A DNA stretch of 18,623 bases, from contig JAOUFI010000042.1 in NCBI GenBank assembly GCA_029858305.1, positions 1 through 18,623 on the forward strand, given 5' to 3'. Source of the stretch: Candidatus Thorarchaeota archaeon. GTDB taxonomy: Archaea; Asgardarchaeota; Thorarchaeia; Thorarchaeales; Thorarchaeaceae. Numbering within the stretch: the first letter of the stretch is position 1; every line of letters begins with the position of its first letter. Positions 1,940 to 17,562 of this stretch are shown one piece after another. Below the pieces are notes generated by a model. The model made no database searches and was not told where the DNA came from. It saw only the letters and a list, made by a program, of their open reading frames with translations. The translations under genes were made by a program, and so were the position numbers.

Positions 1940-1945
1940 AAAGGT

Positions 1946-2062
1946 CTATCAATATGGAATACATTAAGATATTGATAGTTAAATCACTACTTGAGCAAAA
2001 CTTCGTGGACAAATAACAGGAGGGCATCACTAACAATTATTGTTGATTGCCGCAATTATTGC
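1946..2062. promoter_or_regulatory. Candidate operator palindromes in the divergent Lrp / ATC-hydrolase promoter region
   Basis: CTATCAATAT-N13-ATATTGATAG (1946-1978); AACAATTATTGTT (2032-2044); GCAATTATTGC (2052-2062). Confidence 0.45.
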
Positions 2063-2097
2063 TTTGATTATAGAGATTAAAAGCACGCATTTTCAGC

Positions 2098-2847
2098 GTG
2101 ATTTTCATGGCATCAACTGACAATCTTTATGTCCAAGAAAAAAACCATTGGCTGAAATATTATCGCAGCATTATGGAGAATAAAAGAGTTCAACGCTCTG
2201 TGCTTCAAAAATATCTCACTCCCGAAAAAATAGAAGAACTGAAATCAAGCATGCTGCAGCAATTTGAAGAGCTGCTGCCGCAACTCCCAGATTTCGGTAG
2301 AAAGCAGAGAAGTCAATTCTCAACAGACATGGTTAAGACTGCACTTTCTTTGGCGTTTTATCGAGCCTTAAAAGAGGAGGGATTTCAACTTCCTGTTATC
2401 GGGCAGATAATCTTTGAAATTAGTGAGGCTTATTATGGAAGCCTGAATCCAATAATGAAATTCATCATGCGAAGGTTTTACCTCGCTTCATCTACTCATA
2501 GGAAGGCCAAGAAGGCGATAGAACAGAGGAAACTGCCTCTTGATCCTGAGGACTATCATTGTACTTTTGTTGAAGGTGACGAAGAGAATTTGCTTTTTGG
2601 TTTGGACTACACAAACTGTGCAGGGCTCCATTTGCTAAAAAACCATAATGCATTAGAATTGGCACCATACCTTTGTTTGTGTGATTATCCAATATACAGA
2701 GCGATCAACATAGGTTTTAATCGCACTCAGAATCTTGCGATTGGTGGAACGGCATGTATGTTTCGATGGTACCGTAATTATCCGACTGAGAGAGGCTGGC
2801 CGCCCGTAGAGGTGACTGAATACAAAGACTTCAAATTCAAGGAATAA
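2098..2847 (+). CDS. L-2-amino-thiazoline-4-carboxylic acid hydrolase-like (ATC hydrolase family) protein
   Basis: C-terminal DYTNC...ELAPYLCLCDY...GFNRTQNLAIGGTACMFRW matches the family's Cys pattern. Likely start ATG at 2107. Confidence 0.8.
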   Translation: MIFMASTDNLYVQEKNHWLKYYRSIMENKRVQRSVLQKYLTPEKIEELKSSMLQQFEELLPQLPDFGRKQRSQFSTDMVKTALSLAFYRALKEEGFQLPVIGQIIFEISEAYYGSLNPIMKFIMRRFYLASSTHRKAKKAIEQRKLPLDPEDYHCTFVEGDEENLLFGLDYTNCAGLHLLKNHNALELAPYLCLCDYPIYRAINIGFNRTQNLAIGGTACMFRWYRNYPTERGWPPVEVTEYKDFKFKE

Positions 2848-2995
2848 AGCTCTATAGGAAAGCTAAACGAAATCAGTTCTAAGTCCAATTGTAAAGAGCA
2901 GATGATTCATGAAATTAATCATGCGCTCCTTCTCAGAGAATACTAATCAGGCTGGAAGAGATAGAAGATTCTCTTGGAACCTAGAAGCTATTCCA

Positions 2996-3391
2996 TTAGG
3001 TCTCATGAAATTGTTTGAATCTCCTGAGATATACCAGATCCAGAACCAATAGAAACGCTCCTTGGATAATGATTCCGTATCCATTTCCTATGAGAAATGC
3101 ATCTTGTCCCAACAAAATAAGTGGCAGACCAATGATTGGATAGATGAAGTCCAGGCTGATGCTGATAGTTAGTTCTCGTTTGATTTTCTCAAGAATGTGC
3201 TCTCTCCGTCTTAATAATATGAACGCGATAACGAGGTTGATTGAGCCCCAGAGCATGGCTTCAAGACCTATTCCTTGGAGTAATAGAGCAAAAGAGAAGA
3301 AATACAGTGCAATACCAGCTATGATACTTGCCATACTCCAAATCAGCAGAATAGTTTTTAGTGTCTTATTGAGATTTTCAATAGAGTTCAA
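2996..3391 (-). CDS. Small 4-TM membrane protein (DUF6992-like)
   Basis: Four hydrophobic segments; WGSINLVIA, LDFIY and GYGIIIQGAFLLVLD motifs. Confidence 0.65.
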   Translation of the reverse strand: MNSIENLNKTLKTILLIWSMASIIAGIALYFFSFALLLQGIGLEAMLWGSINLVIAFILLRRREHILEKIKRELTISISLDFIYPIIGLPLILLGQDAFLIGNGYGIIIQGAFLLVLDLVYLRRFKQFHET

Positions 3392-3512
3392 ATAATTTGC
3401 CTCCTAGAAGGCAACTTCGTATTCATATCTAAGTTTGTCGCAATAGTTTCCAGAAGGTGTTACTCTTGCACAGGAAAGAATCGAATTGACAACCTGAACA
3501 ATATAAAGGAGA

Positions 3513-3537
3513 GGAGTTGGCTCATGGTGCCAACTCC
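3513..3537 (-). terminator. Hairpin downstream of scar copy A
   Basis: GGAGTTGGC-tcatggt-GCCAACTCC, perfect 9-bp stem, followed by a pyrimidine/T-rich tract on the minus strand. Confidence 0.6.
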
Positions 3538-3550
3538 ACAATACTTGCGT

Positions 3551-3601
3551 TTAAACAGTGGTCGTGACACATTCGATGACAGACTGACAGAGCTCCTTGA
3601 T
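3551..3601 (-). repeat. Gene 3'-end scar copy A (most decayed): IKELCQSVIECVTTTV*
   Basis: Aligns without gaps to MKELCQPVFEWVKTMK*, with the stop at the same position. Confidence 0.75.
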
Positions 3602-3641
3602 GGAGGAATAATCTGTGTATTCCAGTCGTCACTACTATCAT

Positions 3642-6026
3642 TCAAGACATCAGTCGTTCGCGGATTACTCGGTCGATATCAATTCTTCTAAGTTTCCTTG
3701 CAGCAGGAATTACTGCGATGATAGCTGTGAAGATAGTCAGTAGTCCAATAACCAAGACCATCGCAAAATCGATTGATGGCTCATAGAAAGGTATGTAGGT
3801 CTTCATGAATTCATTCAAGAACCCAGTGAATAACTGACCGAGTGGAATCGATAGAATGATTCCGAAACAACTGACAATAAGCACTTCGACAAGTAGTAGC
3901 CGAGTCAACATATTTCTTGACCATCCTAGTGCCTCCAATTGAGCAAGTTCTGGTGTCCTCTCGCTTGTACTGATAGAAACGATATTCCAGACGACAGCTA
4001 GTAATAGAATCATAGCCATTGCAGCCATACCAACTGAAATGGCTGTCCCCTGTGTTTCGCTGAGTGTTCCGCTTGATGCCTGCAGTTTAGTCATGGAGTT
4101 CTCCACATCTGTAAGAGCGAAGACTTCATCTGCAACTGCATCAGGATCGCTGCCAGTGGTGATTCTTACAAACGCACCACTTATCATTTCTTGATGTAGA
4201 TAACTCATGGCTTCTGCAAATTCCATGTAGAATACATTCAAAGGTGAACTGACTATTCCTACAACAGTAGATACTATTGATGAGTTCCCCAAGGTAAGAT
4301 TGACTGCATCATTCGCAGAGATGCCGAGCATCTCAGCAATTGTGATGTCAACAAGAATCTCTCCAGTATTTTGGATTGTTCTTCCGGATTCAAGATTAAA
4401 ACGATGCAAAGAGCCATCGGAATTTAAGCATAACACACTCACCAGTCTTTCCTCTTCATCTACAACAGCTGTCGTTCCTAGTTTCAAATATGGCTCATAG
4501 ATATCAATACCCTCTATAGGAGCTAGAAGATTCTCAACTTGTGTTGTGTTGAGTGGTTGCTTAAAGTCTACAAGTAAATCCCATTGCTCGTATTGATACA
4601 TATACGTTGCAATGCTAGTATTATAGCCCGTAACTAATGTTGTGCCCATAAAAGCGACTGCACCACCGAGAGAGATACCAATGATAAGAAGAGCCGCACG
4701 CATCTTGTTCAAAGACATGCTCCTTACAATGTACTTGAAACCGTAACCAGAGATGCCTGCTTTTTCGCCAATTTTCTCCAGTATAGGTTCGCCTACATAC
4801 CCCTTCTCCATCATCCATCCTCGAATAGCACGAATAGGTTCATATCCAGTAATTCTACGGGTTGGAAAATATGTAGCTACGAGAACTGAACAGGGTCCAA
4901 CAATCAGGGCAACTATATAGATGATGGGAGATAGAGCAGCTGTCTGTGCCTCCATCGAGTACATTGTAAGAATCGAACTGATGAAGACTTGTCCACCTGG
5001 TTCGCCAAGTGGAATAGCGATCAATGTAGTGATTAATGCGAGAACTCCTAACCAGAGTAGGTATGCACGTTGAATAGCTGCATCCGAATAGCCAAGGGAT
5101 TTTGATATTCCGATAGACCTAGAGTTGGACTGAATTATTCTACTGACTGTGGTATAAACAACAAAGACAGCAACGACAAAGATCAATCCTGAGAAGAGAA
5201 CTACAGCTTCATCTGCAATCTCAAATCTTTGAAGTTCTGCACTTCTCAAGTCATTAGTTTCTAAGGTTGTGACGATTGGATAGGGTTCTATCTCTGAAAG
5301 AATATGGTTAAAAATTACGGTTTGATTGTATCCATTTTCAAACCGCACAAGGATTTCATTTACAACATCTTTCTCTCCAGAACCAGCATACAAAAAATCT
5401 TGCAGCACAGATATGTCAATCCAAATAGGAGCTATAGAGGAAAAGGTTGCTCTTGAAGGCGCATGGATGAGTTGCTTTGGATTTCTGTGAGGGAGCAGGT
5501 GCTCTATTGAATTCACGATTCCCACAACCTCCACTTCGAATTCAGACCCAAAGACCTTCAGGATTAGTTCAGAACCAAGAGCTAGTCCATTTGAAGATGC
5601 AAAGGATCGCTCAACAAGAATTGTGTGGTTATTCATCGGGTCCAAATATGTTCCTTCAGAGAGTATCAATTTGAATACTTCAGGAGGTGTGTTTGGGTCG
5701 ATGCCATAGATATCAGCAGGATTTTCATCATGACCTGTGAAACTCGCTTCGCCGAAAATATGATACCTACTAGTAACTCCTTCAACTCCTTCAATATCCT
5801 TAATGCCCGATATGTGTTCTCGAGGGACCGCATATGCCACTGCCATGAAGTCAGGTGATGCATAGGTCTCGTAGGTGGCATCCAAACTTACTCTCATGAC
5901 AGGAAACATTGCAGAAAAGGCAACAAAACAGAAAACTCCAATGAATACTAGGGTTAGACTGCTAATCACCTTCCCTTTCTGGCCGAAAATTTCCTTCCGC
6001 GTCTTCCGTAGAAGTGTGCCAGCCAA
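3642..6026 (-). CDS. FtsX/MacB-like ABC transporter permease (duplicated architecture)
   Basis: Two units of TM + extracytoplasmic domain + FtsX-like TMs; IGISKSLGYS and ERTPELAQLEALGWS motifs; directly downstream of the ATPase. Confidence 0.9.
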   Translation of the reverse strand: MAGTLLRKTRKEIFGQKGKVISSLTLVFIGVFCFVAFSAMFPVMRVSLDATYETYASPDFMAVAYAVPREHISGIKDIEGVEGVTSRYHIFGEASFTGHDENPADIYGIDPNTPPEVFKLILSEGTYLDPMNNHTILVERSFASSNGLALGSELILKVFGSEFEVEVVGIVNSIEHLLPHRNPKQLIHAPSRATFSSIAPIWIDISVLQDFLYAGSGEKDVVNEILVRFENGYNQTVIFNHILSEIEPYPIVTTLETNDLRSAELQRFEIADEAVVLFSGLIFVVAVFVVYTTVSRIIQSNSRSIGISKSLGYSDAAIQRAYLLWLGVLALITTLIAIPLGEPGGQVFISSILTMYSMEAQTAALSPIIYIVALIVGPCSVLVATYFPTRRITGYEPIRAIRGWMMEKGYVGEPILEKIGEKAGISGYGFKYIVRSMSLNKMRAALLIIGISLGGAVAFMGTTLVTGYNTSIATYMYQYEQWDLLVDFKQPLNTTQVENLLAPIEGIDIYEPYLKLGTTAVVDEEERLVSVLCLNSDGSLHRFNLESGRTIQNTGEILVDITIAEMLGISANDAVNLTLGNSSIVSTVVGIVSSPLNVFYMEFAEAMSYLHQEMISGAFVRITTGSDPDAVADEVFALTDVENSMTKLQASSGTLSETQGTAISVGMAAMAMILLLAVVWNIVSISTSERTPELAQLEALGWSRNMLTRLLLVEVLIVSCFGIILSIPLGQLFTGFLNEFMKTYIPFYEPSIDFAMVLVIGLLTIFTAIIAVIPAARKLRRIDIDRVIRERLMS

Positions 6027-6028
6027 AT

Positions 6029-6736
6029 CTACCCCTCCTCATTGGATTCAGAAACGCCATAGACCTTTCCGGATCGCAAGAATATTGACCTATCAGCGAC
6101 CCTTGATACTGAAATCTGATGAGTTACAGCGATGATCGTAGCTCCAGTCTTAGTATTCAGTTCTTTAAGCAATGCCCAGATAGCATCCGAGGTCTCTGCA
6201 TCTAAGTTGCCTGTAGGTTCATCAAGAATAAGAATAGGAGATTGTTTAGCTAGACCTCGTGCGATAGCAACACGTTGCTGTTCGCCGCCACTCATTTGGG
6301 ATGGATAGTTAGTTGCCTTATCTAATATTCCGACGAGTTCGAGATAATGAGAGGCTCGTCTGCGAAGTTCTTGTTTATCTTTGATATCGAGAGCGATGCC
6401 AATCTCTACATTTTCTAACGCCGTGAGAGTGGGAAATAGATTATAGAACTGGAAGACTAGCCCTACACTCGTCCGTCTGAAGTGCGTTCGCTCATCCCTA
6501 CTCATATTTGAGATATCTGTTCCAGCTACCACTACTCTTCCAGAGGTTGGAACATCTAGAGCAGAGAGCATATTCAGGAGCGTAGTCTTTCCTGATCCTG
6601 ATTGACCTAGTATTGCTAGGAACTCTCCTTCCATTATTTCAAAAGAAATACCACGAAGAGCATGAACAATGGTCTCTCCAAGGGTGTAGTCTTTCTTTAT
6701 ATCTTCAATCTGAACAAGTGATGTTGAACTTGTCAT
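6029..6736 (-). CDS. LolD/MacB-type ABC transporter ATP-binding protein
   Basis: [38 protein letters not shown]. Confidence 0.95.
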
Positions 6737-6820
6737 TGTGCGTCACCGATGTTGAAGAAGCAAAATCAAACGTATAAGAACTAGAACGCTAACGCAACTA
6801 GTAGAGTATGGGGAAATAGT

Positions 6821-6852
6821 TTCTTTACGTCGAAGTAATAATACATAAAGAA
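6821..6852. promoter_or_regulatory. Candidate ArsR operator
   Basis: TTCTTTACGT-N12-ACATAAAGAA (9/10 inverted repeat) in the divergent ABC / ArsR intergenic region. Confidence 0.35.
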
Positions 6853-6872
6853 GTGTTTACCTACTCAAACTC

Positions 6873-7472
6873 GTGAGAATACAAATGGATCTTGCCAAAG
6901 CCTCCAAGGCTCTTTCAAATCCAACAAGAGTAAGACTTCTTGAATATCTGCTTGAAAAACGGATCATGAATAAAGGAGACTTGATGTCAGAACTTGGACT
7001 TGAGAGAGCTGCACTAGATCACCATCTCAAACCCCTGATTAACGCTGGACTTGTTCAGACGATAGACGTAATTATCGATAGAGTCAGAAATTGTCTCTGT
7101 TTTCCCCTATTCTCAGTTACAATCACAAGTAAGCAGGAATTATCACCTGAAGTCGTTAGAGATGTCATCGGAGATGAGATTGAAAGTGACATAAACCATG
7201 ATGAGATTCAAGCAAAAGCTCAGAGAGAAGTAACGGCTGGGAATCTACATCAGGAAGATGCTGTCGCTATTGTGCGTACCCTCTTCGAACATAGAGGGAG
7301 AGGTACGAAGAACATGTGTTCTGTCTGTGGTAGGATAAAGAGGATGATAGACCTCTCTCTTTGTAATCAATGTTTCAGACCAGTCTGCTCAACCTGTGGT
7401 CGCAGGATTAAGAAGGATAAAGACATGATGGAATTACTTTGTGATAGGTGTGTTTCTCAATTGTTTGGATAG
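6873..7472 (+). CDS. ArsR-family wHTH regulator with a C-terminal 8-Cys zinc finger
   Basis: KALSNPTRVRLLEYL...LDHHLKPLINAGLV; C-terminal CSVC-x11-CNQC-x4-CSTC-x14-CDRC. Confidence 0.82.
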   Translation: MRIQMDLAKASKALSNPTRVRLLEYLLEKRIMNKGDLMSELGLERAALDHHLKPLINAGLVQTIDVIIDRVRNCLCFPLFSVTITSKQELSPEVVRDVIGDEIESDINHDEIQAKAQREVTAGNLHQEDAVAIVRTLFEHRGRGTKNMCSVCGRIKRMIDLSLCNQCFRPVCSTCGRRIKKDKDMMELLCDRCVSQLFG

Positions 7473-7557
7473 TCAAAAGAACGAGTACTTTACTTTTCAA
7501 TTGCTTCTTGTTCGTATTTACTGTAAAAGGTATGAATTTATCAAAAAACTCAGATTA

Positions 7558-7579
7558 TCTATTGGATTGTGCCAATAGA
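7558..7579. terminator. Hairpin between the convergent ArsR and PCD genes
   Basis: TCTATTGG-attgtg-CCAATAGA, 10 nt from the PCD stop. Confidence 0.5.
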
Positions 7580-7589
7580 ATTCCTCAAC

Positions 7590-7943
7590 TTACTTTGTTT
7601 TCATTTCATCGATTTTTGCAGCCAATATGAAATCATTTTCATGAAGACCATTGATGGCATGTGTCCAAAGCGTCAACTCAACAATATTCCATTGAATGAA
7701 TATATCCGGGTGATGACCTTGTTCTTCAGCTACTTCAGCTACTCTATTAGTAAACTCCATTGCCTTGACAAAATTCTTGAATTTGTACTCGCGTCTGATT
7801 TTATCGACTCCATCTTCCTTTATTCTCTCCCACCCTGGAACAGCCGGAAGCATTTTTTTGATTTTCAAATCAATCAGGGGAGGTATTCCACCCCTGCACG
7901 GAACACACTTCAGGTTCGCGAGTTCTCTCCTGGTTTCAGCCAT
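7590..7943 (-). CDS. phhB: Pterin-4-alpha-carbinolamine dehydratase
   Basis: CVPCRGG, FKNFVKAMEFTNRVAEVAEEQGHHPDI, LWTHAINGLHENDFILAAKID. Confidence 0.95.
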   Translation of the reverse strand: MAETRRELANLKCVPCRGGIPPLIDLKIKKMLPAVPGWERIKEDGVDKIRREYKFKNFVKAMEFTNRVAEVAEEQGHHPDIFIQWNIVELTLWTHAINGLHENDFILAAKIDEMKTK

Positions 7944-8025
7944 AAAATCAGTCTCCAGATTGAGGGTTATTGAAACTGTATCCCATTACTTATAGGATTT
8001 TAGGAATCGACTCAGTTTCTTATTG

Positions 8026-8259
8026 TCAATCCTCACTCAATTTACTTTCAGAGCGCATTTTTTCAAGCTGTTTTCGATCTTCATAGGTCTTGTATACACC
8101 GACTGCCACAGCGCAAGGACCGACAGCACGAATCCTCGATTGCTTTTTCTGATGCGTCCAGATTCTGTTTGTGCTACGAATTCTTGAGTTTCTATCGATG
8201 ATCAGGATAAAGACTATGACGACGATTCCAGTAAGAAGCAGTATCATACCTAGATCCAT
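8026..8259 (-). CDS. Small single-TM hypothetical protein
   Basis: ATG start, N-terminal hydrophobic helix, basic tail; fills an otherwise empty gap. Confidence 0.55.
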   Translation of the reverse strand: MDLGMILLLTGIVVIVFILIIDRNSRIRSTNRIWTHQKKQSRIRAVGPCAVAVGVYKTYEDRKQLEKMRSESKLSED

Positions 8260-8443
8260 GCTCAGCTCGCGTCCTGGAGAAATATAAAGAGAATGAATAA
8301 AGCATCTCTTCTTGCACCTAATCCAAGTGAGATGAAGTCCGAAGTTGGCTGAACAAGTTTCTCAGGTATAGGTGCCAGATTGCAGGGAGTTCTGAATACA
8401 AAAAGAGCCGTTTGAAAGGAAGTCGCTCATATGTATTGTTCAA

Positions 8444-8571
8444 TCATTTCTTCGTCTTTAACCATTCAAAGACAGGTTTGCAGAGCTCCTTCATACGCTA
8501 TTTCTCCGGGTTCATAGGCAAGGTTTCCATCCGTCTGCTGGCTCGAAGTGCCAGTTGGCAACATTCCTCTC
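8444..8571 (-). pseudogene. Gene 3'-end scar copy B (longest): ERNVANWHFEPADGWKP/[frameshift]PMNPEK*RMKELCKPVFEWLKTKK*
   Basis: Manual translation: internal TAG at 8498-8500 and a frameshift at 8519-8520; clearly similar to copies D and F at the nucleotide level. Confidence 0.85.
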
Positions 8572-8658
8572 GACTAATGACCCTTAAACGTTGCATGCAA
8601 GGTTTTTATCCCCTACTATCTTCGTTTATACCAACATCCCATGAGAGGAAGTTAAAGC

Positions 8659-9546
8659 TTGAAGAGAGAGAATAGCGAGATATCTATAGAAAAGAGGCCA
8701 GAAGCTGGTTTCAGTGCGACGGTAAAGGGATTCCTGATGATTCTCTTTATTGGATGCAGCTTTCTCGTCTTCAATGTAGGTGGGTATAATAATTTCATAC
8801 CGAGCAATTTGACCCTTCTGACGAGATTTGTCATTGTATGTATTTTATCTCTCTGCACTTTTATTCTTTATAAGAAAGATAGCACACAAAATGGATTCTG
8901 GCGACTGTCCTTCTCGTTTTTGATCGCATCAATTGGGCTTCTTTGCGCCTGGATTTTCGGAAGATGGTATGAACTCATCCCCGGACTCTCACTAACCACT
9001 ATTGAGGGCGTAGCACTTGCGAAGTTTGCGGAGGTTCTCCCAATAGTCATTCCGATAATAATAGGCATATGGTTAGTTGAACGAGATTTCACAATGATTT
9101 TCCTCTCCGGAGGAAACCTCAAGAGATCGGTCATACTCGGACTCGTTTTATCGCCGGTCGCACTCATCCCATTCTTCGCTCTTGGTGGGCTTGGACTCTC
9201 TGCAAGCATGGGTATGATAATTGGGTGGATACCATGGATGCTTGTCTTTGCATTTAGCAATGCATTCATGGAAGAGCTGATGATCAGAGGTCTATTTCTG
9301 AACAAGTATAATTCTCTCTTCGGCCAAACGCAATCACTGGTTCTCACGTCCGTGATATTTGCAATATTCCATCAGGCAATATTGAGTTATACAGACATTA
9401 TCATGTTCTCAGCCTTTCTAGGAATCACGTTTGTGCTCGGTCTGGTATGGGGCTATATAATGCAGAACTCGCGCAATATATGGGGAGCAGTTATAGCGCA
9501 TGCAGTCGCGGACATTCTATTGCTGCTCACTGTTTTTGGAGTCTAG
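8659..9546 (+). CDS. CPBP family intramembrane glutamic endopeptidase (CAAX/Abi)
   Basis: Multi-TM; EELMIRG, FAIFH and AH motifs. Confidence 0.9.
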   Translation: MKRENSEISIEKRPEAGFSATVKGFLMILFIGCSFLVFNVGGYNNFIPSNLTLLTRFVIVCILSLCTFILYKKDSTQNGFWRLSFSFLIASIGLLCAWIFGRWYELIPGLSLTTIEGVALAKFAEVLPIVIPIIIGIWLVERDFTMIFLSGGNLKRSVILGLVLSPVALIPFFALGGLGLSASMGMIIGWIPWMLVFAFSNAFMEELMIRGLFLNKYNSLFGQTQSLVLTSVIFAIFHQAILSYTDIIMFSAFLGITFVLGLVWGYIMQNSRNIWGAVIAHAVADILLLLTVFGV

Positions 9547-9604
9547 CATTCCAGAGAATGGAGATGAAAAACAATTTGTTTGGCCTTTAATTTGATTTCC
9601 GCTT

Positions 9605-9628
9605 CTAGGTCTTGACCCATTCATAGAC
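9605..9628 (-). repeat. Gene 3'-end scar copy C (shortest): VYEWVKT*
   Basis: GGTCTTGACCCATTCATAGAC matches copy D at 20 of 21 positions. Confidence 0.75.
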
Positions 9629-9674
9629 CTATGGAGTCCTTTCACACATTCTTTCTTAGAAATCATTCCAATAC

Positions 9675-10193
9675 TTACTTTCCAGACAATTGCACTGTGT
9701 ACAGAGCGTTAGCCGGATCTCTCATCATATCTGCAAGTTTGATACCGAGGCCATAACAAACAATTCTCTTGATAGGTGTCAATCGTAAGAAGACCGCGGT
9801 CGCCTTGTAATCTGAGTTAGCTGTAAAGCGAATCATCCTCTTCTGTGAACGAGAGCAATAAGCTTCTCGCGCACTCGAATCGTCAAATGGGAGAATCTCA
9901 ACAGTTCCCTTGAATGAAACGGTTGGTGCAGGAATGAATCTCAAAAAATGGTGTGGAAAGGGAATGACGAACGAAACCCGATGATTTTGCTCAATATTTC
10001 TTACTTTCACATACCTGCGATCAGATAGAACATATAATGCAAAATCAGCGCCCCTCGATGAAACGCCATATTGTACTCCAGAAGATTGAACCCATCCGGA
10101 TGGGTCGATTGTACTCAAGATACCGAAACTCTTCTTTTTGACTTGCTTGATGACTCCTTCTAACGTTTTTTTCATCGTGACAAACCCTCTCAA
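9675..10193 (-). CDS. Pyridoxamine 5'-phosphate oxidase-like (FMN/F420 split-barrel) protein
   Basis: GILSTIDPSG...KVRNIEQNHRVSF...VSFKGTVEI. Confidence 0.8.
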   Translation of the reverse strand: MRGFVTMKKTLEGVIKQVKKKSFGILSTIDPSGWVQSSGVQYGVSSRGADFALYVLSDRRYVKVRNIEQNHRVSFVIPFPHHFLRFIPAPTVSFKGTVEILPFDDSSAREAYCSRSQKRMIRFTANSDYKATAVFLRLTPIKRIVCYGLGIKLADMMRDPANALYTVQLSGK

Positions 10194-10395
10194 AATATAA
10201 CAAGTACTATCATCTCGAGTACTATATCATTTCTCCTCGTAGCAATTTTAATCAGCGATATTGAGAGTGATGTCATATTCTATCTTATTATTTGGATTGC
10301 CTCCTGCATTAATAATGAGAATCAAGAAAAGCACACAGGCGCGGATTCATCACTTCCAGCGCTTTGGAATGTGTGTAAACAACCTTAACAATATA

Positions 10396-11820
10396 TCACT
10401 GAGGTCCGATGAGATCTAAATATGAAAGCGCTTTATCACGGATTTGCTCCAGCTGAGAGCAAGTGATAGTAGGAGAGCCATCTTTTACATGGTAATAGCT
10501 CAATGTAATTGTTAGCACATCACTGACTCCGACAGCCCCCATAATGACTGGTACTTTTGTACCTCCAGAAGGAGCAAAATACATTGTTTTAAGAGTCAGT
10601 TGTCCATAATTCTTCGGAAACTCTAGCCTGCCAAGATTTGTGTTTATCACTTTTGGAAGCTGATCCAAGAATTTTGTTCCGAGATCGATTGCCACGTTAT
10701 TCTTGTCATTTGCAAAGGAATTGAGCTTTTTATAGCGGATTGATTCCTTTGGCACGTTCTTCGCTAAAAGTGCAAAGCTCACCAATACATCTACTAGTGT
10801 TGGATCTAGTGATTCTAGATCCATCGCGCTTGCGAACATGTCTCCTTTTTCAATCCTTGATTGGATTGACTTATGCAGATTGCCTACATTTTCCCAGAAT
10901 GATTTACTTTTATTATATTTAAAAGAAAAGTCGATACTCCCCACAAGTAGACAAAAAACATCTCCTAATGGTGGATTGATTCGATTCCTCAGGTCGTAGG
11001 GAAGAACAACTCTTCTTGGTTTATTGACTCCCTTTTCTATGATGTCATTAAATGCTGCATTGAAAGCGGTTGTAAGAGCTGAATTGACTGTGACTCCATT
11101 GGATCTACAGGTTTCAGTGAGTATACTTGTCTTTTCCTTATCAAGTTCTAATAGGACTGCATCATATTGATATTCTTGATTAAAGGCATCATGAATTGCT
11201 AGGAAGTCCTTGTCATCAAAGTAGAAAGGATTTCTTTTCCATTTATCATCTATTCTCCGAATAAAGAATGATTTTGCCCTTTGTCCCAACCTGATTGCGT
11301 CTTGCCCTTTTGATAACAATTCTGGCAGGAGTATGTTTGGCTCGATTGTAGTGAGTGGAGACTGAGGAGTCACAGTAAGAAGCAGGATATCGCGAATTAG
11401 GAAAGCTAAAGCCGTACCATCACAGATTGCATGTTGCGCAATAACCACAAGGTCTGAAACAGATTCCGAGTGAATTAGGACAAACCTGATCAATGGTCCT
11501 TCGAACTGCTTGAACGCGACGGTGAATTCACTCCTAATTACATCGATCCATTGCGTTTCGGATTCTCGTTTTATAACGACCAATGGAATTTCTATCTCCG
11601 GGTCATGAATGAAATACAGAACTCGATTTTTCTCCATGCCGACTTTACTTGATACTAGAGGGTGCTTTTGTGAAATCTCTTTTATCGCAGACCTCAGAGA
11701 ATCAATAGGCACGTTCCCTTCTATTCTTGCTACCACTGAAACATTAGCGCCAGGACTCCACAAGAATTTACGCTCATTGTTAATCAGTTTTCGAATTGCT
11801 CTGTCAGGCATTCCAGTCAC
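10396..11820 (-). CDS. Standalone condensation-domain / PapA5-like CoA-dependent acyltransferase
   Basis: HPLVSSK, GPLIRFVLI, QHAICDG (HHxxxDG variant), CRSNGVTVNSAL, DLRNRI, TNLG. Confidence 0.85.
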   Translation of the reverse strand: MTGMPDRAIRKLINNERKFLWSPGANVSVVARIEGNVPIDSLRSAIKEISQKHPLVSSKVGMEKNRVLYFIHDPEIEIPLVVIKRESETQWIDVIRSEFTVAFKQFEGPLIRFVLIHSESVSDLVVIAQHAICDGTALAFLIRDILLLTVTPQSPLTTIEPNILLPELLSKGQDAIRLGQRAKSFFIRRIDDKWKRNPFYFDDKDFLAIHDAFNQEYQYDAVLLELDKEKTSILTETCRSNGVTVNSALTTAFNAAFNDIIEKGVNKPRRVVLPYDLRNRINPPLGDVFCLLVGSIDFSFKYNKSKSFWENVGNLHKSIQSRIEKGDMFASAMDLESLDPTLVDVLVSFALLAKNVPKESIRYKKLNSFANDKNNVAIDLGTKFLDQLPKVINTNLGRLEFPKNYGQLTLKTMYFAPSGGTKVPVIMGAVGVSDVLTITLSYYHVKDGSPTITCSQLEQIRDKALSYLDLIGPQ

Positions 11821-11831
11821 GCCAAAATTGC

Positions 11832-11875
11832 AAGTAAGTCTTACTTATATATTTGGTTAAGTAAGCAATACTTAT
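11832..11875. promoter_or_regulatory. Two TetR-type operator boxes flanking a TATA-like tract
   Basis: AAGTAAG-T-CTTACTT (perfect palindrome, 11832-11846) and AAGTAAGCAATACTT (11859-11873), 27 bp apart. Confidence 0.65.
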
Positions 11876-11897
11876 CTTCTTAGTTAAAATACCAAAA

Positions 11898-12539
11898 TTG
11901 GAACTTGTATTTAGTCAAGAAAGAGGTCTTTTGATGAACTCACAATCAAGAAAGCGAAGAACAAAGAAAGAGAACATGGATATAATCAAACGAGTCGCGT
12001 TCCAGCTATTGAAGGAAAAGGGGTATGTAAATCTTTCAATAAATGATATCGCCGATATGTCAAGCATAAATATCAGTCAGGTTTATCGATATTTTCCAAA
12101 TGGAAAACCGGATATCTTCCTATCTCTTGGTGTTGATTTTTTTGAAACAAGCGCGCCAAAGCTCGAATCTATTGACTTGAATCGACCGAGAGAGTTCTTG
12201 TACTCCCTTGTCATGTCTCTTATTAATACTCATCGAGCCAATAGGCTTATTCTTCAGGTCTTGAAAATAGTCTTTCTATCATACCCGGAATTGCTTAAGG
12301 GAGACAAGGATCTATTCCGTCTGAGTTTATCTGAATTCAAGTATTTTGATACGCTAGTTGAGCAGCTTGGAGTGGTCGAACCTCAAAAACGAGTGGCAAC
12401 AACTCAATTCGTCTTCCATCTTGTTGATTCAATGATTCATAGGCATATATTGGAGACTGATGTGGCTGAAACTGATGAGGTTCTTGCTCATCTACTCTCA
12501 AATATTGTAGTAAAGCATATCGATTCAATAGCAAAGTAA
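11898..12539 (+). CDS. TetR/AcrR family transcriptional regulator
   Basis: IIKRVAFQLLKEKGYVNLSINDIADMSSINISQVYRYFPNGKPDI. Confidence 0.9.
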   Translation: MELVFSQERGLLMNSQSRKRRTKKENMDIIKRVAFQLLKEKGYVNLSINDIADMSSINISQVYRYFPNGKPDIFLSLGVDFFETSAPKLESIDLNRPREFLYSLVMSLINTHRANRLILQVLKIVFLSYPELLKGDKDLFRLSLSEFKYFDTLVEQLGVVEPQKRVATTQFVFHLVDSMIHRHILETDVAETDEVLAHLLSNIVVKHIDSIAK

Positions 12540-12736
12540 TATTGATGAACAGAATTGATTGCTTGTGATTTTCGACCTTGATTCAAAATCAAGATCGTAC
12601 CTAGTTACTAAAACCTGACATGCCTGCTTGCTTTTTCGAAACTCGAAGAAGTCTTCAAAAAGAAAGAAAATAAATTTTTTATTTTGATCTTAAGTGTAAG
12701 TTCAGGATGGGTTGTCTCTCTTCTTCTAAAATGTGA

Positions 12737-12805
12737 TTACTTCATGGTCTTGACCCATTCAAAGACAGGTTGACAGAGCTCTTTCATCTGCTCTTTCTCG
12801 GGAGT
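12737..12805 (-). repeat. Gene 3'-end scar copy D: TPEKEQMKELCQPVFEWVKTMK*
   Basis: Manual translation; intact frame, TAA stop. Confidence 0.9.
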
Positions 12806-12921
12806 CTTTGAAGTATCTGTGGACAATTATCTTACAATGATACCTGATTCAGCTTGATTTACTCTCGTACACTGTCGCTCAAATCACGAAAGCTCTCACC
12901 ATATACTATTTCTCAAGGCAT

Positions 12922-13560
12922 CTATCTCTTGACGCCATCCCACCACTCCTTTGGTTTCTCCAATTCCTCCCAACCTCCAAGAAGAGGAGGAGCTGGAATG
13001 AATTTCAACATCAGTAATCCTGTCAGGAGAAGAACGGGTATTGGTAGTGAGAACATTACTGCAAGACTCGGTGTCCCAAAGGCTAACGGAATTATAGCAA
13101 GACCAATTAAAGTGAGTTGGAATTCGCTTATTATGCCAACAATGATAACTCGATTTTTTGTTGTCATATGATAGTAATATTTGAAGAGTTGATAGATAAA
13201 GACGAATTTCATGAACAGGAAAAGAAAAGCTATGAGAAGAAACTCAGGACCAAACATGAAGATGTTAGGGGTGGAATCTGAGATCTGCCATGACATGGCA
13301 AAGATTGTGACGGACGGGTAGAAGCCAGTTCTGGGGTAGATATTCAGCGATGCGGGGCTCAGAATAGCAATCAATAGTAGTATAAAAACGATATTTGTAA
13401 TATTCATTCTCATGTTCTTTAAATCAACAGCTTTGAAGGACCTACTGCGCCTATTCATTATGATGAGAAGAGTTCCGATGATAATAAAAACAACGAAGGT
13501 CTCTGTGATGATGGAAATTATGTTGTAATATCCCACAGGTGTTGCATCTGTAATTTGCAT
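12922..13560 (-). CDS. Multi-pass membrane hypothetical protein
   Basis: 212 aa, about 5 hydrophobic segments, LPIPVLLLTGLLMLK-type C-terminus. Confidence 0.75.
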   Translation of the reverse strand: MQITDATPVGYYNIISIITETFVVFIIIGTLLIIMNRRSRSFKAVDLKNMRMNITNIVFILLLIAILSPASLNIYPRTGFYPSVTIFAMSWQISDSTPNIFMFGPEFLLIAFLFLFMKFVFIYQLFKYYYHMTTKNRVIIVGIISEFQLTLIGLAIIPLAFGTPSLAVMFSLPIPVLLLTGLLMLKFIPAPPLLGGWEELEKPKEWWDGVKR

Positions 13561-13601
13561 GATTTAGATCCTTCTTTGTTCATTAGCTTCCCAGTAATCT
13601 A

Positions 13602-13925
13602 TTGTCTTTGAATACATACTTCTCACTCTCAGCAACAATGACTCGAAAAGCAATTTCTCAGATTAAAATGAAATCACTTCTACCACGCACGCATCCCTGG
13701 AGCGTAATGTCTGATAAATATATCCCATTTTCTTGGATCTTCGAAGATGACAGAGAGATTGTCATTTGTTACAGCTTGAACCCTCTCATGACGGAGTGTG
13801 CTACAATGTTATTCCGAATGGCGTGTGATATTGTGATGAGAACATATCATTTCACATCATGTCAGGAATTACATGAATTCCTGTGGCATGGAAAAGATAC
13901 CGAATGGAAATTCACAAAAAAGTAA
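13602..13925 (+). pseudogene. Probable 3' fragment of an unknown gene ending LHEFLWHGKDTEWKFTKK*
   Basis: C-terminus is homologous to 17678-17728; N-terminus (TTG start) is unconvincing. Confidence 0.5.
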
Positions 13926-13929
13926 GATA

Positions 13930-13957
13930 GAGCTGGAAACCAACAAATATCCAGCTC
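13930..13957 (-). terminator. Hairpin downstream of scar copy E
   Basis: GAGCTGGA-N12-TCCAGCTC, lying between two convergent stop codons. Confidence 0.6.
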
Positions 13958-13971
13958 ATTTTCATTAAAGA

Positions 13972-14007
13972 CTATTTCATCGTCTTGACCCATTCGATAA
14001 CTGGTTG
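13972..14007 (-). repeat. Gene 3'-end scar copy E: QPVIEWVKTMK*
   Basis: Manual translation; TAG stop. Confidence 0.85.
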
Positions 14008-14082
14008 GAGATTATGCAAAAAAGAACGGAGTAAAGCCAGTATTCAGGTTTCATTTCAGCGCTCGATTAATTTAGCAAAATG

Positions 14083-14622
14083 CTAAGATTCAACCAGAAA
14101 TTCAAAACCAGGCGCCTTTCTCAAAGAATCCAAGTCTGAATCCTCACGAGCCAACTTTCTCAAAGATTCGTCATTCTCAAGAGCGGTCTTGAGGAGATTC
14201 AGAGCCTCGTCAATCCGCCCCATTAACGCATTGTAACGGGCGAGATTGTAGTACGCCAAGTAGAGTTCTTTCTCGTTGCTCTCAACTCTCAATGCATTCT
14301 CAGTTGCGTCAATCGCATCATCATAATCTCCGAGGGCTCTTTGGGCATGTCCAAGGTTTAACCAAGGCCAAAACTCATTTGGGTCAAGATTAGTCGCAGT
14401 CGAGAACGCTTCAGCGGCATATTCATAATCCTGTTTCCGCATCCGAATGTGGCCTAGTTCTAACCATAGTTGCCAAGAGTCCTCATAATCCTCAAGCGAA
14501 ACTATGACTAACTCTTCTGCATCTGTGATAAGATCGTTTTCTCTTAGGTACTTTACTCGATTCACAATTTTCTCAATTTCGCTCAATATGCCACCAGCAT
14601 CTATTAGTCTTTTAAGAGTCAA
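14083..14622 (-). CDS. Tetratricopeptide repeat protein
   Basis: WLELGHI...AAEAFSTATNLDP, WLNLGHAQRALGDYDDA, YYNLARYNALMGRIDEAL...AREDSDLDSLR. Confidence 0.88.
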   Translation of the reverse strand: MTLKRLIDAGGILSEIEKIVNRVKYLRENDLITDAEELVIVSLEDYEDSWQLWLELGHIRMRKQDYEYAAEAFSTATNLDPNEFWPWLNLGHAQRALGDYDDAIDATENALRVESNEKELYLAYYNLARYNALMGRIDEALNLLKTALENDESLRKLAREDSDLDSLRKAPGFEFLVES

Positions 14623-14804
14623 AATTAAGATACAATTACTTGCTTTTACAACATGCGGTGGGTGCTTTTAATAAAACAAATATCTCTAATCTTGGTTCAG
14701 CATCATTTCTTGATGACCAAGGCATTGACTTACCACAATTATACTTGAATTCAAGGCGCAGATATTTTAATTGATTCATCACTATCTTGCTAAGAAAGTG
14801 AAAA

Positions 14805-14827
14805 GAGAGTTGGTGGGTCCAACTCTC
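14805..14827 (-). terminator. Hairpin downstream of scar copy F
   Basis: GAGAGTTGG-tgggt-CCAACTCTC followed by TTTT on the minus strand. Confidence 0.65.
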
Positions 14828-14836
14828 AGGTTCATC

Positions 14837-14935
14837 CTATTTCATTGTCTTGACCCATTCAAAGACAGGTTTGCAAAGTTCCTTCATGCGTTCTTTTTCG
14901 GGAGTCATGCCAACGCTTGGTTTCCAGCCATCTGC
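14837..14935 (-). repeat. Gene 3'-end scar copy F: ADGWKPSVGMTPEKERMKELCKPVFEWVKTMK*
   Basis: Manual translation; intact frame, cut off upstream by an in-frame TAA at 14936-14938. Confidence 0.9.
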
Positions 14936-15133
14936 TTACTTATGGTTTGAGGATAGCTGAGAGAAAGAGAATTCTTGGATAAATAGAATCTGTGTAATAG
15001 TATATGCATATTTTGTTTTAGTGCCCTCCAAGATAGCATATATTCTCTGTATTCAAGATTACGCTTTTTGTTATACCTGGCTGGATTTGGTTGTTTCTAC
15101 TGTAATTCAGTAATCTTGAATTATGGATTGTTC

Positions 15134-15541
15134 CTAGATTGACGCTTCACACTTTTCGCAAGTCCGTCTACTAGCATCATTGCGGTGGCCACAGTGTGGA
15201 CAGACAACCAAAATGATTTTTTCTCTAACAATTGTTTCCTTGGGTAGGTCTTGGCTTTGCGTCGGGAGCAGAGAAATCGGAGGCCTGAATCCCTCTTCAG
15301 GACTGAAGATAAGGATGCCATTTCTTATCACCTGAGCCTTCTGAGTGAAGACAGTCCAACCAGTGATCTTGATAGCATACTGCGAATTCTGACCATCTTC
15401 AATCGCTTGGAAGCTGTGAGCCCTACCAAAGCTGTTAATCATAGTTTGACCATCATAAGTGATACGATACCTCCCTGATAAATGAGAGTAGTGAACAACA
15501 ATCTTGTGTGTCCCACTGTAGCAGCTTGCAATGATGGTCAT
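15134..15541 (-). CDS. Hypothetical protein with a C-terminal zinc ribbon
   Basis: Beta-rich N-terminal domain, Pro-rich linker, VVCPHCGHRNDASRRTCEKCEASI. Confidence 0.8.
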   Translation of the reverse strand: MTIIASCYSGTHKIVVHYSHLSGRYRITYDGQTMINSFGRAHSFQAIEDGQNSQYAIKITGWTVFTQKAQVIRNGILIFSPEEGFRPPISLLPTQSQDLPKETIVREKIILVVCPHCGHRNDASRRTCEKCEASI

Positions 15542-15792
15542 TTTTCAATCCTACCTATCCTCAACTATCGATTTATCCCCTTTAATCTTCTGTGGCGGAA
15601 TTTACTATAGTCAAAGTCCAGATATTACTCATTCAATGTCACCAAGATTCTTCTTTCCTACGGTTCAGAAATAGCTAGATACTACACAGATATCTGAAGA
15701 GATGCAAGCTCAAACCAAGATGGCGACAGACTTACTCTGTTTGTATAAGAGATATCATTTTCTATGCAGAAAGCGATATGGAAAACGGAATT

Positions 15793-15969
15793 TGGTTTCC
15801 AGACTACTTTCACCGGCATGCCAAACTCGGCATCCCATGGGTCCAGACCTCGTAATTCATTTGCAATGGCAGTCTTACAGCCGTCAACAATGACGTACGC
15901 AAGAACAAATGGTAAGCGCTTCAGACTGCTTTTTCCCGACCACCCAGCGATCGTGAAGACATGGATTCT
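15793..15969 (-). pseudogene. Internal fragment of a DUF35 (Zn-ribbon/OB-fold, ChsH2-C-like) gene
   Basis: RIHVFTIAGWSGKSSLKRLPFVLAYVIVDGCKTAIANELRGLDPWDAEFGMPVKVVWKP. The FTI / PFVLAYV / GMPVKVVW pattern is typical of the DUF35 OB-fold. No start codon; in-frame stop upstream at 15982-15984. Confidence 0.8.
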
Positions 15970-15988
15970 ATGATGCTTTAGTTAAAGA

Positions 15989-17530
15989 TTGCTATCTGAA
16001 ATCATTATATGGTCTATAACGATAAACAGACTCATGCCTACACGGAAGGAAAAAATCCTCGAATCAATCAAGAGGGCAACTGAAATTAAAGGCATAAGGA
16101 ACAATGACGAATTACACAAATTTCTATCATCACAGGATAAAACGAATGTCAACATACTGAGACTGTATTTGGAAAATGAATTCATCGATAATTTAACACT
16201 TGACTCTTTGACTGAGTTTCCGAAACTTCAAACCCTCAGAATAGTAGGAGGTAGATACGAAAATATTGAATTAAAAGTATGCAACGAAATGAAATCATTA
16301 AGTAGTTTTATCATTGTCGACAATACAAAGATAAAAGAGATTGACATCCGACCACTATTAGATAATCCACGCGTAAAGAATATCGAGCTATCAGTATTAA
16401 AACAACTCAGAAATATACTAATGGATAACATACATAGGAATGAATCACTACAAACACTCATCCTACTCAATGATAGGGAATATGAGAATGAGTTTTGTCC
16501 AGACTTGTCACTCATTAGCAAATGTAAGAGTCTACAGAAACTTGTCATCACTACAAATGAGAAACAAATCGACCTATCAATGCTTATTGACCTTAGAAAT
16601 CTTGTTCGTCTAACAATTATTCATCATGTAGAAACTCGTTGGTTGGCACCATTAGATGATCACCCTTTACTATATGATTTACCAGTCATTGATGGTACTC
16701 CGTTATTGGGAATGTCAAAACTGATAGAATTCAACTATCAGATCAGAGGAATATATTCTCATGTTCGAAATCTAGCTGGAAGAATCAAGCTTCCTGTAAT
16801 TGTATCTTCTGAAATTGGCGATGAGTGGTATCGTATGCAGAAATATCCTTGTTATATTCCACCAACTATTGTGTATGCCAATATAGATGAATCAGACTGG
16901 ACGGAAGTATATCGAAAATTACAAAGATATGCATCATTATTCTCGCCTACTTACTGGTCGAGTTTCAATAAGTACCTCTTGAAAATGTTCAATGTGGATG
17001 GAAACGTGGAAGGTATTGATATAGCAAAGTGTGTTCTTCCATCAGACCTGTTTCGTCTAGTTAAACCCGATAAGAGTAAATCCTCTAATGCAAAGTCAAT
17101 AAAAGCTGGAATCAATGAACACATCCATGAGATGATAGAAGAGTATCTTAATAGCGGGAATAGCACGGCAGGATTTGATATCGATTTTATTAGGACTAAC
17201 AATACCAGGTTCATATCACTCGTGCCTAAAATAGAAGAGATGCGAGATGAAGAGGTAAAAAGACTAACATTCTATGAACTATCACCGGATGATCATGAAT
17301 ACGAAGAATGGTTGGAAAATCCGAGATATTATGTGCACAGCCTTAGGGACACAGTCTATGGTAAGCAAGTTGTAAAGGATATCTACTCAGATTCAAAAGG
17401 TAACATTATTCCTAGATACGTAATGTCATTGAGTGAAATACTTGAAATTGAAGAGCATTTCAATGCATCGGGTATTATAACAGACTGGGAATTCATCGGA
17501 CACCCATTATGGACTACCCTGATGTACTAA
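15989..17530 (+). CDS. Leucine-rich-repeat-like protein (likely start ATG at 16034)
   Basis: Repeated units LDSLTEFPKLQTLRI, IDIRPLLDNPRVKNIEL, DLSLISKCKSLQKLVI, IDLSMLIDLRNLVRLTI. Confidence 0.75.
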   Translation: MLSEIIIWSITINRLMPTRKEKILESIKRATEIKGIRNNDELHKFLSSQDKTNVNILRLYLENEFIDNLTLDSLTEFPKLQTLRIVGGRYENIELKVCNEMKSLSSFIIVDNTKIKEIDIRPLLDNPRVKNIELSVLKQLRNILMDNIHRNESLQTLILLNDREYENEFCPDLSLISKCKSLQKLVITTNEKQIDLSMLIDLRNLVRLTIIHHVETRWLAPLDDHPLLYDLPVIDGTPLLGMSKLIEFNYQIRGIYSHVRNLAGRIKLPVIVSSEIGDEWYRMQKYPCYIPPTIVYANIDESDWTEVYRKLQRYASLFSPTYWSSFNKYLLKMFNVDGNVEGIDIAKCVLPSDLFRLVKPDKSKSSNAKSIKAGINEHIHEMIEEYLNSGNSTAGFDIDFIRTNNTRFISLVPKIEEMRDEEVKRLTFYELSPDDHEYEEWLENPRYYVHSLRDTVYGKQVVKDIYSDSKGNIIPRYVMSLSEILEIEEHFNASGIITDWEFIGHPLWTTLMY

Positions 17531-17535
17531 TAGAA

Positions 17536-17562
17536 TACTCCACCATAAATGATAGTGGAGTA
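17536..17562 (+). terminator. Hairpin after the LRR gene
   Basis: TACTCCAC-N11-GTGGAGTA, 5 nt after the stop. Confidence 0.5.

Follow-up and report, generated by a model that had tools for sequence, protein, structure and literature searches.

How does a row of unrelated genes come to stand behind one conserved gene, with pieces of that gene's own 3′ end between them? The question is raised by an 18,623-bp stretch of DNA from a Candidatus Thorarchaeota archaeon ("the window"), which is the entire contig C17 of a draft assembly (G000; 205 contigs, 3.04 Mb, 42.8% GC). Between its genes lie short copies, here termed scars, of the 3′ end of a gene encoding a DUF35 protein. The window covers the distal part of a hypervariable island of gene accretion located behind a thiolase-coupled DUF35 gene in a genus of Thorarchaeota. 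Gene acquisition in Asgard archaea is little understood, and we see about an even chance that this island arose by polar accretion that required no recombinase and was anchored by homologous recombination in the conserved gene.

Six copies of the repeat are present on the minus strand of the window (3549-3586, 8442-8479, 9597-9634, 12735-12772, 13970-14007, and 14835-14872; hereafter c1 to c6), all of them where an earlier note on this DNA had seen them. A 20-nt core pattern, with up to three mismatches allowed, matched six times and on a single strand only, compared with 0.01 expected matches, and none of 200 shuffled sequences reached six. Translated from the minus strand, the copies are nested C-termini of one protein (...HFEPADGWKP(G/S)..PEKERMKELC.PV.EWVKTMK, followed by the stop). 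The reading frame is open in c4 (TPEKEQMKELCQPVFEWVKTMK), c5 (PVIEWVKTMK), and c6 (ADGWKPSVGMTPEKERMKELCKPVFEWVKTMK), each ending in a stop codon, and is disrupted by stops, a frameshift, or heavy decay in c1 (degenerate, KELCQSVIECV...), c2 (HFEPADGWKP, a frameshift, NPEK, a stop, RMKELCKPVFEWLKTKK, and another stop), and c3 (VYEWVKT and a stop). The earlier note had also claimed that all three stop codons are in use and that the copies differ mostly at third codon positions, and both claims hold: c5 and c6 end in TAG, c4 in TAA, and c2 in TGA, and when c2, c4, and c6 are compared in pairs across the final 22 codons, the differences number 6/6/26 at codon positions 1/2/3.

The gene from which the copies derive was located by tblastn in the same assembly, at the left end of contig C158 and on its minus strand, with a thiolase-like gene immediately upstream. 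The contig end cuts it at ...ADGWKPGPMN, ∼21 codons short of the stop. In a 221-aa orthologue, the families PF12172 and PF01796 (zinc ribbon and OB fold of the DUF35/ChsH2 family) occupy aa 74-174, and neither domain includes the repeated tail (aa ∼175-221). By its domains and its thiolase neighbor, the parent is a DUF35/ChsH2-type OB-fold protein. The tail in c6 carries a variant longer by one residue, KPSVGMTPEK ("SVGM"), as does the intact gene of another genome of the genus (G001), whereas the resident gene on C158 reads KPGPMN. An intact parent had been predicted to the right of position 18623. The gene does exist, and in genomes of the same genus it lies directly upstream of such arrays; in the assembly of the window, it is not physically joined to the array, being found on a separate contig. 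A further degenerate tail copy (SVRMNPEKVCLEELCEPVYE, a stop, AKTLK) is present on the 5.9-kb contig C183 of the same assembly (609-686, plus strand), which is probably another piece of the same island.

The architecture recurs in relatives. A protein search found the orthologue in 14 of the 24 same-genus genomes of a first draw. In G001, eight fragments (nine when counted by DNA pattern) extend along more than 31 kb of one 110-kb contig, all on the strand of the intact gene upstream; in order from the gene, they retain 127, 57, 16, 30, 32, 48, ∼20, and 16 residues. They also show a gradient of decay: the two scars closest to the gene are the longest (127 and 57 aa) and have kept their stops, whereas only one of the six distal scars has a stop. 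Smaller co-oriented arrays follow the intact gene in G003, G015, G018, G020, and G024. Across 51 loci, taken from contigs of one genome per species and including 43 with the full gene, no tail fragment was detected upstream (281 kb, 43 full-gene loci), compared with 19 high-scoring segment pairs downstream (209 kb, from only those 34 loci in which the downstream sequence was 1 kb or longer), and none on the opposite strand in the full-gene loci. Of 27 close orthologues (identity of 73% or more, downstream sequence of 1 kb or more), 13 had one or more scars behind them, as did one of seven distant ones; loci titled Thermoplasmatota, Methanobacteriota, or Sigynarchaeum contained none. These counts are lower bounds, as a short scar in G006 escaped the protein search and was recovered by the DNA pattern. 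In L079, L082, and L085, which form a clade with conserved downstream synteny, no scars were present within 10 kb, which indicates that the scar habit is lineage-specific. When a 21-nt tail pattern (up to one mismatch) was run against 28 genomes of the genus, 64 matches were obtained in 23 of them, compared with three for the reversed control, and on each of the 14 contigs with at least two matches, these were co-oriented. Co-oriented direct repeats of a target's 3′ end downstream of the intact gene, as found here, are a mark of tandem accretion.

As had been anticipated, the scars are confined to the locus rather than scattered: in the assembly of the window, copies are found on C17, once on C183, and as the gene itself on C158. 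A reading of the copies as miniature inverted-repeat transposable elements, other transposons, or repetitive extragenic palindromes was rejected, as they are not scattered, every contig is co-oriented, and the hairpin motif described below occurs only in C17. It also proved correct that the copies are truncated at different 5′ points, the scar starts ranging along the tail between aa ∼95 and ∼212 and the repeat lengths from ∼24 to 384 nt. Among 35 aligned scars, no common flanking motif, fixed core, or insertion point was found; loose clusters of 5′ ends are seen around aa 189-192 and 197-201.

The unit that is repeated (J) combines the DUF35 3′ end with a terminator-like hairpin; a convergent gene, X, often contributes its 3′ end as well. 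The hairpin lies ∼12-20 nt past the stop codon (GAGCTGG/GAGTTGG-loop-CCAGCTC/CCAACTC, i.e., GAGYTGG-loop-CCARCTC) and is followed by a T-rich tract; in the window, it is found after c1, c5, and c6. These three are the only occurrences of the motif in the 3.04-Mb assembly, and five 1-Mb shuffles contained none. Of 79 J units, 46 (28 of 44 intact genes and 18 of 35 scars) have a perfect stem of 7 bp or more after the stop, compared with 5.8% of shuffles. The stems covary, their sequence differing across clades while the structure is kept, and the hairpin can be interpreted as a bidirectional terminator carried along with the tail. A role as a sequence-specific recombination site is unsupported, as stems that covary across clades are what a structural terminator would show. 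Gene X (∼192 aa, C-terminus ...QELHEFLWHGKDTEWKF) contributes its reverse-strand 3′ end after the hairpin in many J copies, in the window at 13797-13916 and 17618-17722, and its full-length form stands beside the DUF35 gene in just two of 28 genomes. The notion that X is a recombinase is likewise unsupported; it belongs to no Pfam or PHROG family, and its atlas matches are to unnamed clusters only. The junction copy consisting of X only (17618-17763) lies directly past the stop of the 272-aa open reading frame (ORF) at 17804-18622. Internal DUF35 fragments without a tail, such as the one designated c7 in the window, are also present in L043, L044, and L045. In G005 (87% complete), where no DUF35 orthologue was found, a J scar that includes the hairpin and an X fragment lies behind a paralogous DUF35 gene pair with ∼30% identity to the parent (L043, i.e., G005:C95, 6089-7127), and a second fragment lies 6 kb onward (13105-13266).

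The scars could, in principle, have arisen at home, by internal duplication or unequal crossing-over, or they could stem from chimeric metagenome assembly, in either case without import of foreign DNA. This is highly improbable. Fragment c7 is 93% identical to the resident gene on C158 in protein yet only 77% in DNA (41 differences in 180 nt, 7/5/29 by codon position), and the first scar of G001 is 80% identical to its own resident gene (77 differences in 384 nt, 14/11/52), and with this divergence of 20-23% in DNA, a recent local duplication of the resident gene was rejected. Fourteen scars compared with their resident genes over the last 22 codons gave 34/16/110, a sum from which nine of 23 scars had been dropped as truncated or decayed by their count of nonsynonymous codons, that is, by a filter related to the outcome; the counts for c7, for the first G001 scar, and for c2, c4, and c6 are free of that filter. 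For intact genes compared with each other, the counts are 3900/2551/10195. In several scars, the peptide is unchanged, yet four to nine codons differ, all synonymously, from the resident gene or the closest intact allele. By this third-position divergence and the scars with synonymous changes only, tails and scars diverged as parts of functional genes in separate lineages; the earlier note had likewise proposed distinct functional alleles.

Other observations bear on the same alternative. J copies do recombine, the array of G001 contains paralogous cassettes (79-91% identical, partly in permuted order), and contigs of the probable source run break within c4 and c6, all of which count in favor of a home-made or artefactual array. 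The architecture, however, recurs in 23 of 28 assemblies of the genus, the public loci bear differing isolate names, cargo differs across species, and the GC content within the window ranges from 33% to 50%. At the level of reads, for which Logan contigs were the source, eight pieces from the probable source run cover positions 407-18615, except for 612-616, 802-853, 3720-3929, and 6455-6527; those spanning 6528-18615 overlap end to end, and six of the eight are without differing letters. Three further runs (X2-X4) contain small shares of the window (0.21-0.32), from which no habitat or strain is deduced.

Evidence that the DUF35 gene itself recombines comes from the intact copies. L054 and L055 are 87-96% identical in 90-nt windows that start within the first ∼210 alignment columns (∼ the first 300 nt) and 71-80% identical thereafter, and the pattern is the opposite for L054 and L048. 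Informative sites united L054 with L055 at a ratio of 76 to 11 before column 390 and of 20 to 29 after it (Fisher, 2.9e-8); as this triplet was chosen after window plots had been viewed, a scan of 14,880 triplets gives the fairer figure, its top chi-square being 36, which survives a crude Bonferroni correction. Breakpoints in intact genes are spread across the gene body. The G001 gene is closest to L054 in its 5′ part (86%), whereas its 3′ part reaches no more than 75% identity with any intact gene and is most similar to the first scar of G001 itself. Such 5′/3′ mosaics are direct evidence of intragenic recombination by which the 3′ part is replaced. They also directly support the claim that DNA from outside recombines with the gene and brings a new 3′ end along; the architecture and the mosaics back the earlier proposal, which had allowed for both homology-driven and integrase-driven insertion. 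A mosaic anchor gene is also what homology-facilitated illegitimate recombination leaves behind.

The cassettes between the scars are shared among genomes, again in a way that involves J. The tetratricopeptide repeat (TPR) cassette of the window, taken with the adjoining parts of c6 (3′) and c5 (5′), shares 86-88% DNA identity with cassettes lying between scars in L055 (G042) and L054 (G015); beyond each J, the neighbors differ across genomes, and similarity ends at differing points inside J. The ATC_hydrolase gene, distal in the window, is located in L055 between the gene and a c6-like scar, and the whole distal flank is not a fixed boundary of the island, because parts of it follow scars in L095, L055, and L043. 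Within the array of G001, paralogous cassettes comprise a methyltransferase (91%), a small membrane gene with its scar (89%), and a NosD-like gene (79% in DNA), and one order is circularly permuted with respect to J (small gene-J-NosD compared with J-NosD-small gene-J). Recurrent cargo includes methyltransferases, MNT/HepT pairs, NosD-like proteins, ABC ATPases, TetR regulators, leucine-rich repeat proteins, and TPR proteins. That sister genomes should carry different cargo behind the same gene was borne out across the compared loci.

From these observations, a route of growth can be proposed. Donor DNA of a related lineage would bring its own DUF35 3′ end and its own downstream genes, and a homologous crossover between donor and recipient would take place inside the conserved gene body. 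The distal join could be of two kinds: an illegitimate one, inside the recipient's tail, which would leave a new scar whose length is arbitrary, or a homologous one, between a donor scar and the recipient's tail, where an ordinary double crossover would insert a new tail, its cargo, and a scar and would thereby spread an existing cassette. In the outcome, the gene would be intact, with the new tail and cargo adjoining it and the older tails and cargo pushed downstream; later recombination among J copies would shuffle, duplicate, or delete cassettes. A dedicated recombinase would be unnecessary. This homology-based route would explain why the genes are mosaic, why scar lengths and the ends of cassette similarity vary, why integrases are missing, and why the array is polar.

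A different origin would be tandem site-specific integrative elements, whose attP mimicked the DUF35 3′ end plus hairpin and whose integration modules were later lost. Such units could have been plasmids, proviruses, or elements akin to integrative and mobilizable elements (IME), served by a tyrosine, serine, or unknown integrase, and the loss of their modules would have left cis-mobilizable or dead cassettes flanked by att remnants. Their expected traces would be integrases, a matter on which the earlier note, which saw no recombinase in the window, was correct: the tyrosine recombinase family PF00589 has no match in the assembly of the window, nor in G001, G005, G006, or G014. In the genus, PF00589 was matched at 20 places in eight of 28 genomes, none of them on a J-bearing contig, and 12 integrase contigs that were fetched, many integrase contigs being short, contained no DUF35 or X fragment. 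Serine recombinases (PF00239; five genomes searched) were matched only off the array contigs, in G001 and G015. Scans of viral contigs by tail alignment, with the HerA-like protein, and with a 613-aa protein yielded no relatives of J or of the gene-proximal G001 module. Neither an IntI-type tyrosine recombinase beside the array, as in an integron, nor a site-specific integrase beside an att site was found in these genomes, which are fragmented at the locus, by profiles that cover the two families named. The 20 genomes of the genus without a PF00589 match (E ≤ 0.001) include one that is 97% complete; 14 of 14 control genomes had a match.

The repeats themselves can be read for or against such elements. 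The gene is kept intact, the repeats are co-oriented, a conserved hairpin lies within them, scar starts cluster loosely near aa 190 and 200, and the architecture resembles that of Dehalococcoides ssrA and tycheposon islands, as far as the available parts of their descriptions go; moreover, assemblies break at the locus, and active units may be missed. Integration at an att site is, on the other hand, at odds with repeats of ∼24 to 384 nt without a common 5′ boundary, with similarity of shared cassettes that stops at differing J points, with breakpoints spread over the body of the intact gene, and with hairpin stems that covary by clade like those of terminators instead of forming one fixed sequence. 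Taken together with the lack of integrases on J-bearing contigs, this makes integrative elements an unlikely source, albeit the foremost alternative to homology-based accretion.

Relevant here is the module that adjoins the intact gene in G001, the youngest and largest of its array (9.3 kb). Besides a HerA/DUF87 ATPase and a NUMOD3+HNH endonuclease, it encodes three proteins of no known family, among which, on the view of integrative elements, there could be a novel recombinase. The ATPase (1028 aa) lies beside the 618-aa endonuclease, which has five NUMOD3 motifs plus HNH and matches phage homing-endonuclease families (L034, 13061-18000; G001:C10); the two could be a defense pair or the core of a mobile element. 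A homing endonuclease suggests yet another origin, in which naive genomes are cut in their DUF35 tail by the enzyme, the donor's tail and neighboring genes are copied through one-ended invasion and end joining, and the resected tail of the recipient remains as the scar. Variable scar starts would suit variable resection, and a 5′/3′ mosaic gene is expected from co-conversion. Such a gene, however, was seen in one array only and is absent from the window, no endonuclease family is recurrent among 297 ORFs downstream of the gene in the compared loci, and scar starts span ∼350 nt, so that we hold this origin to be improbable.

Accretion by homologous recombination has to be weighed against several points, all of which count against it. 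The recombination event itself is deduced, none having been seen directly, and tails of 60-380 nt that are just 72-90% identical should recombine inefficiently. All genomes are metagenome-assembled genomes (MAGs) broken at this locus; an integrase-bearing unit could sit in the unassembled gap, and a recombinase of a family beyond the profiles searched may be at work. The clusters of scar starts could be preferred cut sites or reflect shared ancestry of scars, and the youngest module of G001 is mobile-element-like in content. Finally, array and intact gene are not joined in the assembly of the window; this separation, together with the breaks of source-run contigs within c4 and c6, fits assembly failure at the repeat.

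Parts of the architecture are familiar from other systems. In the accretion of streptococcal integrative and conjugative elements, IME, and cis-mobilizable elements (e.g., at fda), the 3′ end of a conserved protein gene is the target, the gene stays intact, and units are in tandem, some of them without recombination genes. These systems are bacterial, and they have a site-specific integrase and a defined att core, neither of which was found at the Thorarchaeota locus. Integrons, of which archaeal ones were reported in 2022, are ordered polar arrays of small, largely unrelated cassettes separated by a repeated, hairpin-containing element. The Thorarchaeota arrays, in contrast, have no IntI and no attI or Pc platform, and their repeat appears to be a gene tail rather than attC; the cassettes contain one to five genes in both orientations, and toxin-antitoxin (MNT/HepT) cassettes are present in them too. 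In homology-facilitated illegitimate recombination in transformable bacteria, one homologous anchor and one illegitimate join add foreign DNA beside a conserved gene, with no need for a dedicated recombinase. To our knowledge, this is an experimental outcome and not the builder of a standing, lineage-wide array, and we know of no archaeal case in the literature consulted.

Closer in layout are two islands at RNA genes. In Dehalococcoides, the single-copy conserved gene ssrA has several tandem islands behind it, within 100 kb; a co-oriented direct repeat of the gene's 3′ end bounds each island, cargo is strain-specific, and many units lack integration genes, being read as cis-mobilizable or fixed (McMurdie et al, 2011; PMC3146451). 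According to the available parts of that report, the anchor there is a transfer-messenger RNA (tmRNA) gene with a fixed 20-bp repeat and a mapped insertion point, and 16 islands have a serine-integrase module, dsiB, near attL. In the tycheposon islands of Prochlorococcus, successive integrations at one site push older elements deeper, the islands are strewn with degenerate elements and with partial copies of the target gene, and cargo is adaptive or accessory; the targets are tRNA genes, and the preprint, in its available portions, describes tyrosine recombinases, with fragmented integrases in remnants (Hackl et al, bioRxiv 10.1101/2020.12.28.424599). The Thorarchaeota locus differs from such tRNA and tmRNA accretion in its anchor, the tail of a protein gene with terminator and X end, in a repeat of unfixed length (∼24-384 nt), in the lack of any integrase or integrase fragment found, and in its Asgard host. 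For Asgard archaea, the parts seen of two papers on mobile elements (PMC11529989 and PMC8813620) deal with viruses, transposons, and elements that bear integrases, located at tRNA genes or short motifs; together with the parts seen of one preprint, they mention tyrosine integrases, tRNA-adjacent integration, and an 11-bp motif. No description of DUF35-tail arrays was encountered in these parts or in literature searches, the supplements of PMC11529989 and PMC8813620 being places where integration sites may be listed.

The locus is a natural ordered record of past acquisitions. If no dedicated recombinase takes part, a conserved gene tail would be a standing landing pad for gene flow between species, which would explain part of the flexible genome of Thorarchaeota as well as the breaks of MAGs at this locus. 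A broader proposal, which we make tentatively and with slightly less than even confidence, is that Thorarchaeota possess a recombinase-free, integron-like capture platform, in which the tail of a housekeeping DUF35 gene, kept by selection, plus its terminator would be a universal homology anchor for cassettes imported from other species, ordered by arrival and shuffled through homologous recombination of the host. If the units are decayed integrative elements instead, this would be the first such target in an Asgard protein-coding gene within the partly accessible literature that was searched.

The features of the window are compiled in Table 1. The cargo annotations of the earlier note (ABC, ArsR, pterin-4a-carbinolamine dehydratase, CPBP, PNPOx, acyltransferase, TetR, TPR, and zinc ribbon) were confirmed by Pfam. 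Homologues of the CPBP/Rce1-like protein (59-62% identical in amino acids) are encoded downstream of DUF35 in G014 and G006.

Table 1. Scars, junction copies, and cargo along the window.
Feature	Position	Strand	Content
Distal flank	1-3391		ABC ATPase, double-HTH Lrp/AsnC-type regulator, ATC_hydrolase-like protein, DUF6992
Scar c1	3514-3601	-	Degenerate DUF35 3′ end 3551-3601, hairpin GAGTTGG..CCAACTC 3514-3536; most distal, most decayed
Cargo	3642-8259	-	FtsX/MacB permease, ABC ATPase, ArsR (+ strand), pterin-4a-carbinolamine dehydratase, 77-aa membrane protein
Scar c2	8442-8571	-	DUF35 aa ∼183-221; frameshift and internal stop
Cargo	8659-9546	+	CPBP/Rce1-like membrane protease
Scar c3	9597-9655	-	Short, degenerate (..VYEWVKT, stop)
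Cargo	9675-12539		PNPOx-like protein, condensation-domain acyltransferase, TetR regulator
Scar c4	12737-12805	-	Final 22 codons intact (TPEKEQMKELCQPVFEWVKTMK), stop TAA
Cargo	12922-13560	-	212-aa membrane protein, no Pfam family
Junction copy c5	13797-14007	-	DUF35 last 10 codons 13972-14007; hairpin 13930-13957; X 3′ end 13797-13916 (+)
TPR cassette	14083-14622	-	TPR protein
Scar c6	14807-14935	-	Final 32 codons intact, stop TAG; hairpin 14807-14825
Zinc-ribbon protein	15134-15541	-	Gene-proximal module
Fragment c7	15787-15966	-	Internal DUF35 piece, aa 118-177, without 3′ end
513-aa protein, no Pfam or PHROG family	15989-17530	+	Most gene-proximal large module in the window, low GC
Junction copy, X only	17618-17763	+	X 3′ fragment 17618-17722, then 6-bp hairpin ∼17743-17763; no recognizable DUF35 part
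272-aa protein, no family	17804-18622	-	Runs off contig; gene-proximal

Some contigs of the sequencing runs join parts of the window differently. In runs X2 and X3, one joint puts three letters in place of 8387-8516, that is, most of c2 (sides 45 and 24); in run X1, the probable source run, a joint of low depth connects 13694 to 17697 (side 27, under the tool's own threshold); and one record of run X3 connects 14860 back to 9235. These joints are weak hints at J-mediated variants and were not counted as evidence. One contig of run X1 continues from 18615 to 1,462 nt past the right end of the window. The cassette paralogues of G001 are located at L034 3606-7341 and L035 491-7455 (G001:C10), and pairs of MNT (Polbeta nucleotidyltransferase) and HepT, a toxin-antitoxin system, are cargo in seven loci (e.g., L076 11574-12480). 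A stretch of low GC content in the window (16001-17500; 33-37% compared with 42.8% for the genome) covers the 513-aa ORF.

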